The notes below the pieces were generated by a model that was not told the DNA's origin, did not search any database, and was given only the letters and a program-made list of their open reading frames with translations. This document shows, piece by piece, positions 3,113 through 12,234 of a stretch of 14,817 nucleotides of DNA (positions within the stretch are counted from its first letter, which is position 1; each line of letters opens with the position of its first letter). Source of the DNA: Promethearchaeota archaeon (GTDB taxonomy: Archaea > Asgardarchaeota > Thorarchaeia > Thorarchaeales > Thorarchaeaceae); the NCBI GenBank assembly GCA_027031765.1, contig JALVPN010000086.1, positions 1 through 14,817 of the forward strand. The letters run 5' to 3'. A program made the translations under genes and the position numbers.

Positions 3113-3456
3113 CTGGGCGCAATGTCCGGCCGGTCAAGACCGGGGTAGACTCAGACCACGGACATTGCCGGTATCGTACTCTGCGTTGGCACTATGCGAG
3201 GCCCATGGCATGGCAGTCCAGTCACACACGCCTCTGTGCCATGACATCTCTCCTCCACACTGGGCCACATCATCGATAGGCATAAGTGCTGTCCTTCCAA
3301 GTCGGGAGTTGGCCAGTCCTCTGTGGGCTGCGCGACCCCTCGTATGACCGGGCGACCAACTGACTTATTGCGCGAGCGCAGCCTGATGGCATGTGCCCGA
3401 GTGAGCGCACGGGCGGGTTGACGAGCGAGCGACTGGGCCAGCGAGGTCTGAGAGAG

Positions 3457-4830
3457 ATGAAGGTCCGCCTGAAGATAGACCCCCAGTGGCTGGAGCTGGA
3501 ACGACAGAGCATGGACAAGCTCAGACGGGACTATGAGCGGTGGGCAGCCGAGGTGCTCAGGAAGGCGAAGGAGGCCGGCGACCTGCGCACGCTCCGGAAG
3601 GTGGTCTACGAGCTCGGTGACCGGTGGGAGTGGAGCCAGGCGACTGGTGACTGGCTGAGTTCTGGCGAGCCCCTCGAAGCGGTGGGACTGGTGCTCAGGA
3701 TGCCGGGCCTGGAGCCGGGCAAGGAGCGCTACGTCGTCTATGCCATCATGGCGTACAGCAAGGGTGCCACCGACCAGTTCGACCACCTCGGCGACAAGGA
3801 ACGCGTGATAATCGAGCATGACACTGAGACCGGCGAGTTCGTCTGCTGGTCGACCACCGGCCACGGCTGTATGGACCTCAGGCCCACCCGGCTCCAAGGC
3901 TTCAGCTCCCTGGACGAAATCCTCTCCTCGGTCTACTTCATCGCCCAGCCCGGCGACCACGCCTTGCGGCTGGAGGTACCACGCACTGAGGGCCGGCCGT
4001 GGATTTTCGTCCAGGCGCTCTGGCAGATAGCGACCGGCAGCAGGGGCTTCACCCTCAAGGCAATCGACCTGCTGCGTGCAGAGGACATCGAGGAACACCT
4101 CGACTTCCACTTCGCCCCATACCCTGCGGCCGTGATTGCACTGGAACGCAAGTGGGAGGAGCTCCGGACATCGCTGCTGGGGCGTGTCCGCGAGGGCATC
4201 GTTGACGAGATACCCGATGATGTCCAGGCCCGGGACGAGCGCACACTCCAGCTGGTCGGGGCACTGCTCCACCGCATCTGGAACTCGCCACCTGCAACTC
4301 AGGTCGTACCCATCAGGAGGGTGCTGGACGAGCTGTCGTCTGCCCGGCCGGCCACCGAGGTACAGGCTGCCCTCGTCCCACTGCTGGAAGACCTCCTCCG
4401 GGCCCTCAACGACGTGCTTGAGAGGGCCGAGTACCTCAAGTGGAAGAGCGTCATTGACGAGCGCCGCTTTGAACAGAGCGACATCTTCCGCGGCCTATCG
4501 ATCTCAAGGCTGGCAAAGGACGCCCTCGCCGTGGCCTTCGACGACATCCTCAGAGAGCACACCCTCGCATACATCGGTTACCCTGAGCGTACCACCGCTG
4601 TCGGACGTGCCATGCGGGTGCTCTTCGGCGTCGCCGTCCTGCCAGCAAGGCTCATCGTCACCTTCCTCGAACGCGCCCGTCTTACCCTCTCGCGCCTCGC
4701 ATCACGGTTCTCACGCAAGTCCACCGGCAACGGTGAGCAGGACGCCGACGACACGGGTGCGGGTGCTGCTGGTGCGCAGGACACGGGGGACAACGACAAC
4801 GGGACGGCCACCCACCCCGACGGGTCATAG
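3457..4830 (+). CDS. Hypothetical protein, ~457 aa; N-terminal beta-rich region with Vps62/NPP1-like motifs, helical C-terminal half, acidic tail
   Basis: Long ORF with protein-like composition. ATG 3457 is preceded by GAGGT (3443-3447); alternative start is ATG 3391. The family assignment rests on motif resemblance only. Confidence 0.85.
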   Translation: MKVRLKIDPQWLELERQSMDKLRRDYERWAAEVLRKAKEAGDLRTLRKVVYELGDRWEWSQATGDWLSSGEPLEAVGLVLRMPGLEPGKERYVVYAIMAYSKGATDQFDHLGDKERVIIEHDTETGEFVCWSTTGHGCMDLRPTRLQGFSSLDEILSSVYFIAQPGDHALRLEVPRTEGRPWIFVQALWQIATGSRGFTLKAIDLLRAEDIEEHLDFHFAPYPAAVIALERKWEELRTSLLGRVREGIVDEIPDDVQARDERTLQLVGALLHRIWNSPPATQVVPIRRVLDELSSARPATEVQAALVPLLEDLLRALNDVLERAEYLKWKSVIDERRFEQSDIFRGLSISRLAKDALAVAFDDILREHTLAYIGYPERTTAVGRAMRVLFGVAVLPARLIVTFLERARLTLSRLASRFSRKSTGNGEQDADDTGAGAAGAQDTGDNDNGTATHPDGS

Positions 4831-4874: not shown

Positions 4875-5729
4875 ATGATGCAGCTGTTCTTCGGACTGAC
4901 CCCTGAACTGGTACTGCTGCTCCTCATCGTGGGGGCTGCAGTGGGCTTTGTCAGTGCCTTCTTTGGTGTGGGTGGCTGCTTCCTGATGGTGCCCGTGATG
5001 ATAGTCGTGTTCACAGATGTCATGGGCGTCGATGTAGGGGTGGCCACGAAGCTCGCGTTCGGCACGAACATGGGCGTGGTCGTGCCAACAGCACTGAGCG
5101 GTGCATACCGGCACTACCGGGAGGCGGGCTTCCCGTGGACGCACTACTGGCGGTTCGCCATCCCGGTGGGTATCGGCTCTGTCCTGGGCTCCATTGCCGC
5201 GTTCTTCGCGCCCGGGTACCTCCTCAAGGTGCTCTTCGGGATCATGTGCATTATTGGGGCCTACAGGTTCATGACGGCGCGGCCGAAGCCGGTCGATGCG
5301 TTGCCAGACCCTGACCCCAAGAAGTTCGGTGCTGCCGGGACGTCTGCCGGTGCCCTCGCACACTTCATGGGCATTGGCGGTGGCCTCGTGTATGTACCTG
5401 TCCTGAACACGGTCCTATCGGTGCCGGCGCGGGCAGCAGTGGCAATCAGCGTTGCGACGATGGTCATTGGTTCGGGTGTCGGCGCCATCTCGTTCGCCCT
5501 GCTCGGCTCGCTGGCCCCGGGTGGGACGCTGCCACCGGGTAGTATCGGCTGGTTCAGTATCCCACTGTTCCTCCTGCTGGCGACCTCGAGTGTTGTGTTC
5601 GCCCAGCTCGGTGGGAAGGCGACCCACAGGATCAGTCCCAAGAGGCTCAAGGTCCTGATGGCCGTCCTGTACGTCTACATTGGCCTCCGCCTTGTGGGCA
5701 TCCTTGCGCTCCTGGGCTGGCCATACTAG
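4875..5729 (+). CDS. Sulfite exporter TauE/SafE (TSUP) family membrane protein
   Basis: Very hydrophobic 284-aa protein with two internal repeats carrying the family motif (FGVGGCFLMVP; MGIGGGLVYVP) followed by A-x-[GA]-T/IS segments. Confidence 0.9.
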   Translation: MMQLFFGLTPELVLLLLIVGAAVGFVSAFFGVGGCFLMVPVMIVVFTDVMGVDVGVATKLAFGTNMGVVVPTALSGAYRHYREAGFPWTHYWRFAIPVGIGSVLGSIAAFFAPGYLLKVLFGIMCIIGAYRFMTARPKPVDALPDPDPKKFGAAGTSAGALAHFMGIGGGLVYVPVLNTVLSVPARAAVAISVATMVIGSGVGAISFALLGSLAPGGTLPPGSIGWFSIPLFLLLATSSVVFAQLGGKATHRISPKRLKVLMAVLYVYIGLRLVGILALLGWPY

Positions 5730-5752
5730 TCGGTGGTACACGTACTCCCTGG

Positions 5753-6505
5753 TCACTGTGTGTCTGTGGCATGTCCGTGTCCGAGGGCCTTGAGCTGCCG
5801 GATGGCGCCGCCGGGGGCCACTCCCTTCGGGCATGCCCGCACACAGTTCATTATCAGTTCGCACATCGGTGCTGCGTTGGGTGCGAGTGCAGCGTCAAGG
5901 AACCGCTGTCTGTCTGTCACTCTACTGTCAGCATAGAACCTGAGGGCCTTTGCCAGCGCTGCCGGGCCCACGTAGTCGCTGTGCTCGGCGTTCACCGGAC
6001 AGGAGCCGTAGCATATGGCACACATGATGCAGTCAAGGTACCTCTGTATCCGGGCACGTCCCTCCGGGCCCTGCGTCCTCGGCTCCTGTGCGGGCGCTGC
6101 CCAGAGCTCCATGTCGCGCAGTGCCCTGAAGAACGGCCGCATGTCGACCACGAGGTCTTTCAGTACCGGCAGGTTTGGCAGCGGCTCCACGAGGACTCCC
6201 TGCGCGGGGCTCCACTCTGGTGGCACGGTCTCGATGGCGGGGAACGGTCTCAGGTGCATGTCCTTCTCACCGAGGCCCATGACCTGCGTCCTACACGCCA
6301 GTTGTGGCTGCTTGTTTATCAGCATGGCACAGCTCCCACAGACCGCACCACGACACGAGTACCTGAAGGCCAGTGACGGGTCATGCTCGTCCTGGATACG
6401 GAACAGCACGTCGAGCACAGTGTCCCCCTTCTTGACCTCGACCTCGAATGTGTCGTAGTGGGTTTCCCCGGCTCTCCCATGTGACCTTGCTATGAGGAAC
6501 CTCAT
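5753..6505 (-). CDS. sdhB: Succinate dehydrogenase/fumarate reductase iron-sulfur subunit
   Basis: [2Fe-2S] motif SCRGAVCGSC...LAC, [4Fe-4S] motif CIMCAICYGSCP, [3Fe-4S]-type CELIMNCVRACP. Start overlaps the sdhA stop (TGATG). Could equally be frdB. Confidence 0.93.
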   Translation of the reverse strand: MRFLIARSHGRAGETHYDTFEVEVKKGDTVLDVLFRIQDEHDPSLAFRYSCRGAVCGSCAMLINKQPQLACRTQVMGLGEKDMHLRPFPAIETVPPEWSPAQGVLVEPLPNLPVLKDLVVDMRPFFRALRDMELWAAPAQEPRTQGPEGRARIQRYLDCIMCAICYGSCPVNAEHSDYVGPAALAKALRFYADSRVTDRQRFLDAALAPNAAPMCELIMNCVRACPKGVAPGGAIRQLKALGHGHATDTQ

Positions 6506-8184
6506 CAGTACTTCCTCTCCTTCACCTCGAACCGTCCCAGGTGCACGTCCGTGTACTGTACCGCAAGTGCCCCGGGTGCGCCTGTCACAAGTGTGTGTTT
6601 CAGGAACTCCTCATCGTTCCTCTGGGGGTAGTCTGTCCGCCAGTGCGCACCACGGCTCTCGCGCCTCATCAGCGCCCCCAGCGTGATTGCCTCGGCCAGC
6701 AGCAGCATGTTCTCCAGTTCCAGGGCCCGGACGAGGGCGTAGTTGAACTCGCGGTCGGTCTCTCCAAGGGAGGCCCTCTGGGCCTGTCCCTGGAGCCCCC
6801 TGACCCTGCCAAGTGCCTCTGTCAGGCCCGTCTCATTGCGGAACACGCCGACGAGCCTGTCCATGACGGGCCCCAGCTCACGTCTGATGTCTGTAGGCCG
6901 GGAACCTGTCTTCCGGAGCAGGAGTCCCTGCAGCCGCTCCCGCTCCCTGAAAGCTGCGTCCTCCACGGCTGTGACATCTGGCTCACCTGTGCTGGCGAGG
7001 TCCTTGGCCACTGTCCTTGCTGTGACCGCGCCGAACACGAGGGTCTCGAGGAGCGAGTTGCCACCGAGCCTGTTCGCACCGTGGACGCTCATGCACGAGG
7101 TCTCGCCGACTGCGTACAGCCCCTTGACTGGCGTCTTGCCGGTCCAGTCACAGTGCACTCCGCCCATCGAGTAGTGTTGCCCCGGCTGTACCGGGATGGG
7201 CTCGTCCACCGGGTCAACGCCACCAAAGTGCATGCAGATCTCCCTTATGCCTGGCAGACGCTCCTTTATCCTCGATGCGCCGAGGTGACGGAGGTCGAGC
7301 CACACGTACTGGCCGTCGACACCGCGTCCACTGTCAATCTCTGTCTGGATGGCCCTGGCAACAATGTCCCGTGGTGCCAGCTCCATCTGGTCTGGTGCGT
7401 ACTCGCCCATGAACCTATGGCCCTCGCTGTTGGTGAGCACACCACCCTCCCCACGCGCCCCCTCTGTGATGAGGATGTTGCTGCCGTACAGGGTCGTCGG
7501 GTGGAACTGTACGAACTCCATGTCCTTGAGTGGGGCGCCCGCCCGGAGGGCCATTGCGCACCCGTCACCAGTGTTGATGAGCGCGTTCGTCGAGCGGCCG
7601 TACACGCGTCCGAAACCGCCCGTTGCCAGGACGACGGCCCTTGAGGCAAGCCCGAGCACGTCGCCACTGGAGAGCTCCAGTGCTACGAGTCCCGTGACCC
7701 GTCCCCCTGAGACCACAAGCGATGTTGCAAACCACTCCTCGTAGACCGTCACGCCGAGCCGCAGGGCCTGCTCATAGACCGTGTGCAGGAGGTTGTGGCC
7801 GGTCCTGTCTGCCGCGTAGCACGTCCTCGGGAACGAGGCACCGCCGAAGGGCCTCTGGGCAATCGTGCCATCATCGTTGCGTGAGAACGCCGTCCCCCAC
7901 CGTTCGCACTCGTACACTGCAGCGGCGGCGTTCTTTGTCAGCACCTCCACGGCGTCCTGGTCGGCCAGGTAGTCGGAGCCCTTGACCGTGTCGAAGGCGT
8001 GCCGTTCCCACGAGTCGTCCTTGCCAAGGGCTGCGTTGATCCCACCCTGTGCAGCCACCGAGTGGGAACGGAGTGGGTGGGTCTTTGTGACTACTGCCAC
8101 GTCACAGTGCTCGGCCAGACCAATGGCGGTCCTCAGACCTGCAAGGCCTGCGCCCACAATAAGCACATCATGCCTGATGGTCAT
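6505..8184 (-). CDS. sdhA: Succinate dehydrogenase/fumarate reductase flavoprotein subunit, 559 aa
   Basis: GAGLAG FAD-binding motif, RSHSVAAQGG (covalent-FAD His), QFHPT, LITEGARGEGG, APRDIVARAI, HYSMGG, HGANRLGGNSL, RRESRGAH. ATG 8184 is preceded by GGGAGTGA. Reaction direction (Sdh vs Frd) cannot be determined from sequence. Confidence 0.95.
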   Translation of the reverse strand: MTIRHDVLIVGAGLAGLRTAIGLAEHCDVAVVTKTHPLRSHSVAAQGGINAALGKDDSWERHAFDTVKGSDYLADQDAVEVLTKNAAAAVYECERWGTAFSRNDDGTIAQRPFGGASFPRTCYAADRTGHNLLHTVYEQALRLGVTVYEEWFATSLVVSGGRVTGLVALELSSGDVLGLASRAVVLATGGFGRVYGRSTNALINTGDGCAMALRAGAPLKDMEFVQFHPTTLYGSNILITEGARGEGGVLTNSEGHRFMGEYAPDQMELAPRDIVARAIQTEIDSGRGVDGQYVWLDLRHLGASRIKERLPGIREICMHFGGVDPVDEPIPVQPGQHYSMGGVHCDWTGKTPVKGLYAVGETSCMSVHGANRLGGNSLLETLVFGAVTARTVAKDLASTGEPDVTAVEDAAFRERERLQGLLLRKTGSRPTDIRRELGPVMDRLVGVFRNETGLTEALGRVRGLQGQAQRASLGETDREFNYALVRALELENMLLLAEAITLGALMRRESRGAHWRTDYPQRNDEEFLKHTLVTGAPGALAVQYTDVHLGRFEVKERKY

Positions 8185-8354
8185 CTGTTCACTCCCAGTG
8201 CGGACACACAAATCTCCCTGTCATGTCCTCCTCCGATTTATCCGTTTGGTTGGCGGCGCGGGTGCTCACGTGAGGGCCCATCTCATCGTACCCGTGTGGT
8301 CTGCTCCCCCTGGCCGGCACCACATGCCACTCGCCCGAGTCCTACACCAGCCGG

Positions 8355-9166: not shown

Positions 9167-9485
9167 GCCGGTACCCCCTGCGCGGCGTCCTTTTGAACCG
9201 TGCGATATGTGTCCCGTGCACCGCATGACCACTCGTGTGTGTCGCTGTCGACAGCTATCGCTGGTGCTCGGTGGCTGGCCGTTGCACTGTACGTCACTAC
9301 ACCCACGGGACTGTGGTGGAGGGGCCTGCTGGGATGGCCTCTAGGGCGGAGACCGTGGACCGCCCTGCACACAGCGCCGTGCACACCTGCCAGGCGTGGT
9401 CATGTCCGTATTGCAGTGCTGTTGTTGCCGGCGCTGTGCCCCGTCCACGGGTGAGCCGCTGGGTTGGCCGTCATGTGCGAGGTCT

Positions 9486-10862
9486 TCAAGTGTTGGTACC
9501 TGTACTCTGTCCACTGTCCGCTGTACTACCACCCTGTTCTATCACTGTGACTTCTGGCTGGCGTCCCTTGCCCTTGGGCTGGAGCCTTATCACGTACTGG
9601 GCAGCCTCTTCCAGCTCCTGCATGTGCGTGACAATGAGCACCTGCCGTACTTCCCTGAGCGATGCGATGGCCTCCGGCAACCACCGCCGCCGCTCCGAGT
9701 CGAGACCGGCGCCGGGCTCGTCCAGCACGAGCAGGTCTGGTGGTGCCCTCGTGAGGTTGTGGTGTTGTAGGGCCAGGTTGACGGCCACACGCAGCGAGAA
9801 GTTGACACAGACGTCCTCGCCACCGGAGGCGTCTGTCAGTGGCACCTCGTTGCCCCGGAGGTCGTACAGTGTTGCATTGTAGTTGTCGTCCACCCGCAGG
9901 TCGCCGTACCTGTCGCCGAATATGCCACAGAACAATGTGCGTGCGTGCTCCCGGATTGTCGGGCGCAACTGGTACTCCGCGACCTCGGGGATGTGCCGTA
10001 CTATCTCCTCCAGGGTGCTCAGTATCCCACGGTCTTCTTCGAGTGCGCTCAGCCGGCCCTGGACCTTGTCAGAACGGAGTTCTGCCTCCACCTCCTGGAC
10101 GGACTCGAACACCTTCTCCACCACGGCCCGCAGTGGTGTGAGGTCGAGAGTGGTCTGTCCGGCCAGGGTGTCCAGGAGCCCGAGTGCCCTGTCTATCTCA
10201 TCGTGGGTCGGCAGGCGCCTGAGGATGTCCTCCAAGCGCTCCCGAGTTTCTCGTATCCCCGCAATCTCTCTCTCGACACTGCGCCTTTCGCTACGGATTT
10301 TGCTGTCCACACTGTCATAGGCCCGAAGGCCCATCATCGCGTAGAGTGTGTCCCTCCTGTTCTTTGGGGACTGACGGGACAGCCGGTTGATCTCCCCCTG
10401 GCGCACGTATATCAGGGCCGAGAACGCAGCACGGTCCATACCGAGGAGCTGCTGCACCTCCCTTGTGACCTTCTCCGCACCACTGGCCACTGCGGTTCTC
10501 TTTGGGTGGCCCTCAGCTGCTCCCCTGCTGGCCCGTGTCTGGCCCTCTTCAAGGAGGTACAGTTCGGCAGTGGTCCTCCCGGGGTGGAGGGTCCGTACGA
10601 CCCTGTATGTCTTCCCGTTGGCCGGGGCCACAAAGTCCAGTTCCACCCGGCCCCGTTCCTTGCCGAACTTGATGAGCCGCTGCAGCTTGGTGACAGTCTT
10701 CTCCTTACGCGACACGCTCTTGAAGAGCGCGAACTCGATGGCCTCAAGGATTGAGGTCTTTCCCGAGCCGTTGGGGCCCACTATCGCAATGAGCCCGTCC
10801 GGGAACTTGAACTCATATCTGTCGAAGACCTTGAAGTTCTCCACGTACAGCCGCCTTATCAT
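9486..10862 (-). CDS. rad50: Rad50/SbcC-like SMC-family ATPase, unusually short (458 aa), no zinc hook
   Basis: MIRRLYVENFK N-terminus, Walker A GPNGSGKTS, Q-loop YVRQGEI, signature ASGGE, Walker B/D-loop LLVLDEPGAGLD, H-loop IVTH. ATG lies 1 nt after the mre11 stop, behind GGGGAG. Symbol reflects family, not proven orthology. Confidence 0.9.
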   Translation of the reverse strand: MIRRLYVENFKVFDRYEFKFPDGLIAIVGPNGSGKTSILEAIEFALFKSVSRKEKTVTKLQRLIKFGKERGRVELDFVAPANGKTYRVVRTLHPGRTTAELYLLEEGQTRASRGAAEGHPKRTAVASGAEKVTREVQQLLGMDRAAFSALIYVRQGEINRLSRQSPKNRRDTLYAMMGLRAYDSVDSKIRSERRSVEREIAGIRETRERLEDILRRLPTHDEIDRALGLLDTLAGQTTLDLTPLRAVVEKVFESVQEVEAELRSDKVQGRLSALEEDRGILSTLEEIVRHIPEVAEYQLRPTIREHARTLFCGIFGDRYGDLRVDDNYNATLYDLRGNEVPLTDASGGEDVCVNFSLRVAVNLALQHHNLTRAPPDLLVLDEPGAGLDSERRRWLPEAIASLREVRQVLIVTHMQELEEAAQYVIRLQPKGKGRQPEVTVIEQGGSTADSGQSTGTNT

Positions 10863-10863
10863 G

Positions 10864-11952
10864 TCACTCCCCTCCCCCCTCGATGACCCTGCGGAGTCGT
10901 TCCAACAGCTGTTCGGGCTCACCGGTACGGGTCTGCTCAAGGTATTCCCGCACTGAGTGCATGACATCCAGCGGTCTGGTCAGTCGGATGTCCCTGGGCC
11001 CGTAGCACTCCCAGCGCACGTCCAGGTGGACCAGCAGTGCGCCGGTCTTCTCCTCCACCTCCTGTATCACCTCGTTCCGTTTCAGTGACCCCTCGACCTC
11101 CCCGTCTACGGCACCGGTGAGGCGCACGAGTACTATTGCACCATTGGCGTTCTTCTTCCTCTTCATCACCGAGTCGACTACCTCCTGCTTGATCTCCGTT
11201 GCCGAGCGGCCCGTCACATCGAGTTTGACCTGGATGAAGCGGCGGGTGTCTGATATCGGGGGGGTCTCGAACTTGACCTCGTCGCCATCTATCTCGACAA
11301 TGATGACACGCTTCGTCCCGTACAACTCGTTCTCCGGTTTCACAATGCACGTGGAGCCCGGGATGCCCACACAGTTCTCCGTGTCAAGTGCAAACGTATG
11401 TTTGTGCCCGAAGCCGTAGTACTGGAACGTGTCGGGTATCGTGTCGTACTCAACATCCAGGTGGTGCGCGAAGAAGAGGGCCACATCGCTGTTACTCTCC
11501 GTCACTGCATTTCTAAGGTATCTCCGGGCCCTCTGCTGCCTCGTCCACGCTAGGAGGTGGAGCTCAACGTCCTGGTGCTCCACGCTGAGGGACACCCTGC
11601 GGTACTCCTGTCCCTTAGTGCCGACCACCACGTTGCTGGCCTCAAGGCTCCTCAGTGGGCTCTGGTCATACATGAACCCGTAGGGCACGTCGTGGTTCCC
11701 GTCGACCAGTATGGGGATGACTCCCTTCCGCCTGACCCGACGGAACACTCCTATCGCAAACGTGAGGTCCTTGATACTGTTGAGGCCGTTGATGTCGAAC
11801 AGGTCACCCGTGTGCACCAGGATGTGGGGTCTGTACTCCAGGGCGGTGTCCACAGCCCTCTTGAAGGACCGCCTGACGTCCTCGCGCCGTTCCTCCAGCT
11901 GGAACACAGCACAGCCGAGGTGTGAGTCTGAGATGTGGGCTATCCTGATCAT
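10864..11952 (-). CDS. mre11: Mre11/SbcD-family DNA repair metallophosphoesterase nuclease, 362 aa
   Basis: Phosphoesterase motifs DSHLG, GDLFD, GNHD, AHH, GHKH, PGS; capping-domain-like region; C-terminal helix-loop-helix resembling the Rad50-binding domain; directly upstream of the Rad50-like gene. Confidence 0.92.
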   Translation of the reverse strand: MIRIAHISDSHLGCAVFQLEERREDVRRSFKRAVDTALEYRPHILVHTGDLFDINGLNSIKDLTFAIGVFRRVRRKGVIPILVDGNHDVPYGFMYDQSPLRSLEASNVVVGTKGQEYRRVSLSVEHQDVELHLLAWTRQQRARRYLRNAVTESNSDVALFFAHHLDVEYDTIPDTFQYYGFGHKHTFALDTENCVGIPGSTCIVKPENELYGTKRVIIVEIDGDEVKFETPPISDTRRFIQVKLDVTGRSATEIKQEVVDSVMKRKKNANGAIVLVRLTGAVDGEVEGSLKRNEVIQEVEEKTGALLVHLDVRWECYGPRDIRLTRPLDVMHSVREYLEQTRTGEPEQLLERLRRVIEGGGE

Positions 11953-11970
11953 TCCAACCTACCACTCATT

Positions 11971-12014
11971 GGTGTTGCCCATCGTGACAGCAGGCCATCA
12001 TGACGGCCAACACC
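11971..12014 (-). promoter_or_regulatory. 44-nt imperfect hairpin in the predicted mre11 5'-UTR
   Basis: Minus strand: GGTGTTG-G-CCGTC-A-TGA-[TGGCCTGCTG]-TCA-C-GATGG-G-CAACACC. It ends 18 nt before the mre11 ATG. Confidence 0.6.
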
Positions 12015-12040
12015 CCCAGTGCCCTACAACAATGATATGA

Positions 12041-12056
12041 TGATATTAAGGGTTGC
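12041..12056 (-). promoter_or_regulatory. TATA-like promoter of the mre11-rad50 unit
   Basis: Minus strand CAACCCTTAATATCA with TTAATAT at 12049-12043. It is an AT-rich island in GC-rich DNA and implies a TSS near 12021. Confidence 0.55.
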
Positions 12057-12234
12057 GCAGACATGGTCTACCGCACACTCGCCCGTTGCCGCTGGCGGTC
12101 GTCGTCATACCGCATATTGGCCCGGGGGCCGCCTCCCTCGACCAGTGTGCATGCTGCTCACACCGCCCTCCACCGGCGCCCCCGGAGTGCGACGCCTGTA
12201 CCATGCAGTGGCCTGTGGGCGTGGTCTGGCGGTC

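Follow-up and report, generated by a model that had tools for sequence, protein, structure and literature searches.

We describe a pair of adjacent genes that encode an Mre11-like nuclease and a Rad50-like ABC ATPase of only 458 amino acids (aa) in a Promethearchaeota archaeon of the family Thorarchaeaceae (GenBank assembly GCA_027031765.1). Here we document the anatomy of the two genes, the integrity of their motifs, their fold, their conservation and distribution as a clade, and their co-occurrence with canonical Mre11–Rad50 (MR) genes. On balance we favour the reading that the pair constitutes a lineage-specific, hook-less ‘mini’ MR complex, an accessory MR-type system, the second of its kind and in this genome the third, that accompanies the canonical herA–mre11–rad50 and nurA–herA genes and would act as a hook-independent, ATP-gated nuclease. 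The pair lies on JALVPN010000086.1, a contig of 14,817 nucleotides (nt) that was analysed over its full length and is referred to as the window. This is one entire 14.8-kb contig (C86) of a metagenome-assembled genome of 2.95 Mb in 229 contigs, which is 95% complete and comes from a hydrothermal-vent sample. This sample is the only one listed as containing the stretch, and no RNA data set is listed for it.

Both genes are on the minus strand, with the nuclease gene upstream, and the ATPase gene starts 1 nt past the stop codon of the nuclease gene; the spacing, lengths and coordinates given in the original prediction, which was made from the sequence alone, all hold. A longer open reading frame (ORF; 9486–10967) arises for the ATPase when an upstream ATG is included. 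Because every homologue in the alignment begins at an internal MI(R/K)RL methionine, we take the gene to be 9486–10862. The nuclease gene sits directly upstream of the ATPase gene, abutting or overlapping it, in all 14 of the relatives’ loci that we read. The features of the pair, in window coordinates, are as follows.

10864–11952, minus strand: Mre11-like nuclease gene (362 aa), whose product has phosphoesterase and capping domains and a helix pair at the C terminus; it matches Pfam Metallophos and the Mre11 models of NCBIfam, in each case below cut-off.
10882–10965, minus strand: C-terminal helix-loop-helix of the nuclease (residues 330–357; AlphaFold2 helices), a likely Rad50-binding domain.
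9486–10862, minus strand: hook-less Rad50-like ABC ATPase gene (458 aa), with matches to Pfam SMC_N and AAA_23.
10755–10778, minus strand: Walker A motif GPNGSGKT (residues 29–36), invariant.
9963–10322, minus strand: arm (residues 181–300) with no cysteine and no hook, according to the AlphaFold2 model (block confidence scores of 87–96), the alignment and cysteine counts.
9816–9827, minus strand: ABC signature SGGE (residues 346–349), followed by invariant D350-V351-C352.
9714–9734, minus strand: Walker B motif LLVLDEP (residues 377–383), with the D-loop GAGLD (residues 384–388) next.
9621–9632, minus strand: H-loop VTHM (residues 411–414), with H413 invariant.

The ATPase had been predicted to contain every ABC motif within its 458 aa. 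We located all six (Walker A, Q-loop, signature, Walker B, D-loop and H-loop; the Q-loop at residues 152–157), and all are invariant across 24 aligned homologues. The motifs, and a fold like that of the Rad50 heads of M. jannaschii (MjRad50) and P. furiosus (PfRad50), identify a Rad50-type head that is split by an inserted arm. An AlphaFold2 model built from the family alignment (mean predicted local distance difference test score (pLDDT) of 88) places in this arm an outgoing helix of 36 residues (181–216), a turn at L217–P218 that is invariant among aligned homologues, two cap helices (220–236 and 242–262) and a return helix (265–315) that continues into the C-terminal lobe, in agreement with the short arm, proline-bounded apex and return arm read earlier from the sequence. 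With 0.15 nm allowed per residue, the length of the paired stub would come to around 5 nm, or at most around 8 nm if the cap extends it. An antiparallel coiled coil of tens of nm is absent, and the whole family spans only 417–458 aa. The window copy of the ATPase also has an insertion at residues 111–121, modelled with pLDDT below 50, and a Ser/Thr/Gly-rich tail (residues 446–458), neither of which is present in relatives.

No zinc hook was found. The sole cysteines of the window ATPase, C312 and C352, are 40 aa apart in the C-terminal lobe, where C352 is invariant and stands just past the signature motif. A CxxC hook motif occurs in none of 120 homologue clusters, 117 of which are without any cysteine in residues 171–300. 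The earlier statement that the protein has no CXXC and only two cysteines about 40 aa apart is therefore correct, and it extends to the family.

Sequence and structure searches place the ATPase among Rad50 proteins. Its top PDB profile match is the MjRad50 head (1.4e-53), the NCBIfam Rad50 models match both ATPase halves (around 1e-44) and the top Foldseek matches of the model are 5DNY, 3AUY and 3AV0. The nuclease is an Mre11 phosphoesterase with conserved metal-ligand motifs and a capping domain. As anticipated in the original prediction, the metal ligands are intact, with all eight (D9, H11, D50, N86, H87, H163, H183 and H185) invariant in 22 homologues, and the AlphaFold2 model (pLDDT 85) shows the phosphoesterase domain, the capping domain and a terminal helix pair (330–341 and 346–357); a conserved PLDV..S..EY motif occupies residues 327–337. 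Foldseek aligned full-length MjMre11 (3AV0_A) across 388 columns, and the best fold and PDB sequence matches of the nuclease are all M. jannaschii Mre11 (3AV0, 5DNY and 4TUG). Both proteins are thus nearest to M. jannaschii Rad50 and Mre11 in sequence and in fold, and the assignment to a true Mre11/Rad50-type pair stands.

These similarities bear on the idea that the genes encode an SMC-like pair with a structural or regulatory function and no nuclease activity, such as one engaged in chromosome organisation like the archaea-specific SMC-related proteins (ASRPs), with a phosphoesterase that acts on a non-DNA substrate. The pair does give weak matches to the ASRP (5.6e-15) and arcadin-4 (4.7e-20) models, and such a short arm is ill-suited to canonical MR tasks. 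However, the Rad50 models score far above the ASRP model, and the Mre11 active site, capping domain and helix pair are conserved in a fold that is specific to Mre11. We regard this explanation as highly improbable.

The short form is widely represented in public data. We list 120 homologue clusters of 417–458 aa (median 429) and 49–54% identity, drawn from more than 100 independent assemblies in NCBI, JGI, ENA and Logan; named public copies are mostly labelled Candidatus Thorarchaeota. When the library is clustered at 50% identity, the short clade shrinks to a handful of representatives, and the next matches past it are proteins of 596–679 aa and then canonical Rad50s of around 800–930 aa. The hook-less form of roughly 430–460 aa is thus conserved as a clade, a point that had been marked for checking. 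None of the 14 loci read in relatives holds a long, hook-bearing gene in its place.

A local deletion in a normal rad50 gene, an assembly artefact or a decaying pseudogene could each produce a protein of unusual length, and length is all that speaks for such an origin, apart from the low-confidence insertion and the tail of the window copy. Against this stand the 120 clusters of similar length from many independent assemblies, the invariance of all motifs, and a tree (described below) in which the clade stands apart from the long Rad50s of both Thorarchaeota types. In addition, a single contig of 3368 bases in the Logan assembly of the source sample covers 9396–12100, and hence both genes, with zero differences; as it derives from the same sample, it is not an independent confirmation. 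We consider the artefact explanation refuted, which settles the concern about misassembly raised with the original prediction. One genome of the set does carry a broken copy, a 165-aa fragment of the short ATPase with two in-frame TAA stops (G140:C26:12654-13157), and this copy may be decaying on account of those stops.

The distribution of the short form is narrow and patchy. With a protein query, we found it in 41 of the 76 genomes of the window’s family, Thorarchaeaceae, and, at 35% identity, in the single genome that represents a sister family within the order. It was found in none of the other Asgard families sampled, in which only long Rad50s gave weak matches. Among 40 family genomes that are at least 90% complete, short-type matches are listed for about two thirds. 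The copy in the sister family (L033:8066-14261; G108, GC content 35%) is the most distant pair, at 36% and 26% identity; it is divergent from a gene for a 598-aa PIN-domain protein, and genes for a KaiC-like ATPase and a TackOD1-domain protein come after it.

The original prediction held that the pair occurs without herA and nurA and advised a search for a second, full-length locus. The first point is true locally, as neither gene is linked to the pair in the window or in the relatives’ loci read, but it fails for the genome as a whole. Contig C3 (region L003:1-2398) carries a DUF87/HerA-like gene, a gene for a 446-aa Mre11 and a rad50 gene whose product has a CPTC hook, and NurA (searched with PF09376) and HerA-like genes lie together on contig C40. 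The Rad50 on C3, which supplies the second locus that was sought, runs off the end of the contig, and its C-terminal half could not be located in the assembly; its orthologues in the family are around 695 aa long, with CxxC near residue 345 (L040-L045). The canonical loci that we read have a fixed order: a gene encoding around 590 aa, mre11, rad50 and a gene encoding 510–656 aa. A Rad50-like match of the ~695-aa size class is present in all 40 family genomes searched, and some family genomes also carry a 930-aa Rad50 with CxxC near residues 490–496.

Because the genome also carries a canonical, hook-bearing locus, the short pair is an extra system and not a replacement. The two share genomes, superfamily and the mre11–rad50 gene order, and yet they are only weakly similar (8e-10 for the N-terminal half of the ATPase and 4e-6 for Mre11), fall into separate clades of the tree and differ in distribution: the hook-bearing Rad50 is present in 40 of 40 genomes, whereas the short pair is patchy. 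A third Mre11-like set was noted on contig C6 (L052:1846-7743, G000), where genes for a 362-aa Metallophos protein, a 306-aa AAA_27/AAA_23 head fragment and a 371-aa ORF are divergent from a gene for a 697-aa Piwi-domain Argonaute; it has no sequence kinship to the window pair.

To place the short ATPase phylogenetically, we used a maximum-likelihood tree of head domains (88 rows and 348 columns), rooted on the SMC of the same genome. The tree is the product of a quick search, its root is a single long branch and its representatives were picked by similarity to the query. Within these limits, the short clade is recovered with a Shimodaira–Hasegawa-like approximate likelihood ratio (SH-aLRT) support of 97 and falls outside both hook-bearing Thorarchaeota Rad50 types, of which the 695-aa type groups with Rad50s of around 800 aa (97) and the 930-aa type with Rad50s of around 900 aa (95). 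Judged by these sequences, the short ATPase is a separate branch and not a shortened copy of the lineage’s own Rad50.

The sister group of the short clade (SH-aLRT 91) is formed by two Rad50-like proteins (596–679 aa) that have no CxxC hook and have at the apex two hydrophobic helices, which form a membrane hairpin. Only five clusters of this type were found (P0128, P0129 and P0345-P0347; also L046:2913-5882). Each copy checked follows a gene for an Mre11-like protein of 379–380 aa, and one member adjoins an MmeI/Eco57I-like restriction–modification gene. The window nuclease is more similar to the Mre11-like partner of this clade (2e-29), its nearest nuclease relative found, than to the canonical Mre11 of its own genome (4e-6). 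The two clades also have in common a variant SGGED signature, the upstream position of the Mre11-like gene and the lack of CxxC; they differ in that the hairpin clade has a longer arm, the two hydrophobic apex helices and an altered H-loop, in which the histidine is replaced (ISTN). It is possible, and we suggest it only tentatively, that the short pair and its hairpin sister represent an old, separate Mre11–Rad50 lineage with a freely evolving apex (a helical cap in one case and a membrane hairpin in the other). Such a lineage would use a hook-independent, ATP-gated nuclease for a task unlike end resection in homologous recombination, such as the destruction of linear or hairpin-ended foreign DNA or the processing of special damaged ends.

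By analogy with solved archaeal MR head complexes, the pair would assemble as M2R2. Two ATPase subunits would engage head to head around two ATP molecules, with Walker A and Walker B contributed by one subunit and the signature and D-loop by the other, and the dimer of Mre11-like subunits would be held through its C-terminal helix pair, clasping the 36-residue coiled-coil stub by the head. A conserved IP(D/E)VAExQLRP stretch is located in the stub next to the head. Binding of ATP would close the heads so that they clamp DNA; hydrolysis would open them, and the two-metal site of Mre11 could then reach a DNA end, a hairpin or a blocked end. With no zinc hook and an arm of only ~5–8 nm, the complex could neither form a long ring around DNA nor bridge ends through hooks. 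The original prediction had likewise excluded a hook-closed ring, and the absence of CxxC anywhere in the protein and the length of the arm bear it out. The hook-less complex would thus act locally, as an ATP-gated end or hairpin nuclease.

A predicted heterodimer of the two proteins lends weak support to their association (ipSAE 0.49, compared with 0.01 for the best control). Three runs had at least 74% of contacts in common, with partner pLDDT of at least 83, and we report no interface from them. The mark used for such predictions is passed by 58 of 80 complexes of solved structure and by 2 of 110 mismatched pairs, although at scores of 0.60 or less it is reached by only 7 of the 80 solved complexes and by both mismatches. 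Because MR complexes have already been solved, the pass may also reflect likeness or memory only.

The setting of the pair is chromosomal and ordinary. In the family loci that we read, as in the window, the flanks are conserved: a rubrerythrin gene borders the pair at one end and a HAD hydrolase gene at the opposite end, in some loci with an intervening NAD(P)H oxidoreductase gene; these settings are syntenic and contain no known defence gene. All syntenic loci belong to one family, and shared descent therefore explains the synteny of the flanks. We considered whether the pair is functionally linked to the oxidative-stress genes that flank it (rubrerythrin, flavodiiron protein and NAD(P)H oxidoreductase) and do not use this as evidence; the neighbours in the sister family differ (a PIN-domain protein, a KaiC-like ATPase and an amidohydrolase). 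A 123-aa ORF that precedes the pair in one relative (L018) was also considered as a conserved third gene and rejected: it has no Pfam match and no counterpart in the window.

The main rival to a role in specialised end processing is a defence module against mobile elements, in which a short SMC/ABC ATPase senses foreign ends or hairpins and licenses a nuclease, as in OLD, Gabija, PARIS, MAD3–MAD4 of MADS, and Lamassu. Several observations keep this alternative alive. The pair is patchily distributed within genera and dispensable, and in a genome without it (G037; L050:10680-13695) the slot between the HAD hydrolase and rubrerythrin/flavodiiron genes is taken up by a gene for a multi-pass membrane protein of 527 aa together with an ORF of 177 aa. 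In the sister clade, one member has the restriction–modification gene as its neighbour. The best PADLOC matches of the ATPase are mad3 (2.8e-38, full length) and LmuB (6.9e-26), and in MAD3–MAD4 a short ABC ATPase and a nuclease likewise form a complex, with 2:2 stoichiometry (PMC13662399). However, the PADLOC matches of the ATPase (mad3, LmuB, PbeC and AriA) are generic to the ABC head and weaker than the Rad50 models, PADLOC returned no defence-model match for the nuclease or for any neighbour, and the flanks are ordinary genes kept across relatives, not a variable island. Identity of around 50% inside one family also fits vertical descent. We therefore think a defence module unlikely, and the chromosomal, syntenic setting without defence neighbours leads us to lean towards specialised processing of ends or hairpins.

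Several points weigh against our favoured reading of the pair as an accessory, hook-independent MR nuclease. Scores against curated models are low: the best NCBIfam Rad50 model gives 152 bits, compared with an equivalog cut-off of 700, and the best Mre11 model 86 bits, compared with a cut-off of 500. The pair is missing from around a third to half of family genomes, including several that are 96–99% complete; as it is absent from near-complete genomes and its slot can hold other genes, its role is dispensable, a pattern compatible with defence and with specialised repair. Yeast Rad50 with a truncated coiled coil is impaired in functions of its globular domain (PMC10418313), and for this reason a stub-armed complex might be a poor nuclease or work differently.

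Other genes of the window were noted in passing. A 479-aa protein with no Pfam match (3391–4830, plus strand) is 47–58% identical in relatives, where its gene adjoins the HAD hydrolase gene; a minus-strand ORF that overlaps it (3151–4272) is probably spurious. Genes for a TauE-type exporter and for the flavoprotein and iron–sulfur subunits of a succinate dehydrogenase/fumarate reductase (4875–8211) lie between the HAD hydrolase and 479-aa genes in the window. Because these two genes are adjacent in relatives, the intervening region looks like a local insertion or rearrangement. At 2–2524 on the minus strand, a gene for a STAND-type NTPase of at least 841 aa, with C-terminal TPR repeats and no PADLOC match, runs off the contig end.

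Compared with the archaeal MR complexes of M. jannaschii (3AV0, 5DNY and 5F3W) and P. furiosus (3QKU and 3QKT), which give the best sequence and fold matches, the pair shares the ABC head, the Mre11 ligands, the capping domain, the helix pair and the position of mre11 directly upstream of rad50. It differs in having no zinc hook, no adjacent herA or nurA, equivalog scores below cut-off and a separate branch in the tree, and its arm amounts to around 36 residues and a two-helix cap instead of hundreds of residues. The engineered head-plus-stub constructs of MjRad50 and PfRad50 that were crystallized (339–372 aa) are only modestly shorter than this natural 458-aa ATPase.

Phage T4 gp46 is the classic short Rad50. 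Like the window pair, T4 gp46–gp47 and bacterial SbcCD are Mre11/Rad50-type ATP-dependent nucleases, but gp46 and SbcC retain a CxxC hook and a genuine coiled coil and the short ATPase has neither; scores against the SbcCD models are also below cut-off (TIGR00618, 106 bits compared with 478.5; TIGR00619, 31 compared with 77.65). Known Rad50 arms measure 18–60 nm, with phage and bacterial arms at around 18–20 nm (PMC10418313). The pair descends from Mre11–Rad50 and would work like it, and yet it lacks the long coiled coil, the zinc hook and scores that reach the curated family cut-offs.

Among defence systems, MAD3–MAD4 of Pseudomonas MADS, OLD, Gabija GajA, PARIS AriA and Septu PtuA also combine a short SMC/ABC ATPase with a nuclease. 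The partner here is an Mre11-fold phosphoesterase and not the OLD-related nuclease proposed for MAD4 (PMC13662399). The resemblance to Lamassu is confined to a partial match to LmuB (6.9e-26): the partner has no PADLOC match, no third conserved gene was seen, and neither LmuA nor LmuC was identified. Pairings of short SMC-like ATPases with nucleases are already known in many forms, so that the principle itself has precedents.

Reviews regard the coiled coil and zinc hook of Rad50 as features shared by organisms from phages to humans, and work in yeast genetics has found them necessary for the functions of the head (PMC10418313). In the literature we found no paper describing a natural hook-less or short Rad50 with Mre11, or Asgard Rad50 paralogues, and none in which the short form is already a described family; a Sulfolobus Rad50 serves only as a ubiquitylation substrate in the one study concerned (PMC5654768), and a review of NurA makes no reference to the pair. 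The pair is a natural Mre11–Rad50 that retains every catalytic residue, although the hook is gone and almost none of the arm is left, and it is kept alongside a canonical copy. With around 820 residues per heterodimer, it is a compact system that offers a structural and biochemical view of the MR head alone, and a way to ask whether tethering or ring functions are the only ones that arm and hook serve. Alongside its membrane-hairpin sister, the short clade shows that the Rad50 apex is evolutionarily replaceable. If the two do represent a separate lineage that works as a hook-independent, ATP-gated nuclease, the zinc hook and the long arm would be dispensable for core MR chemistry in vivo.

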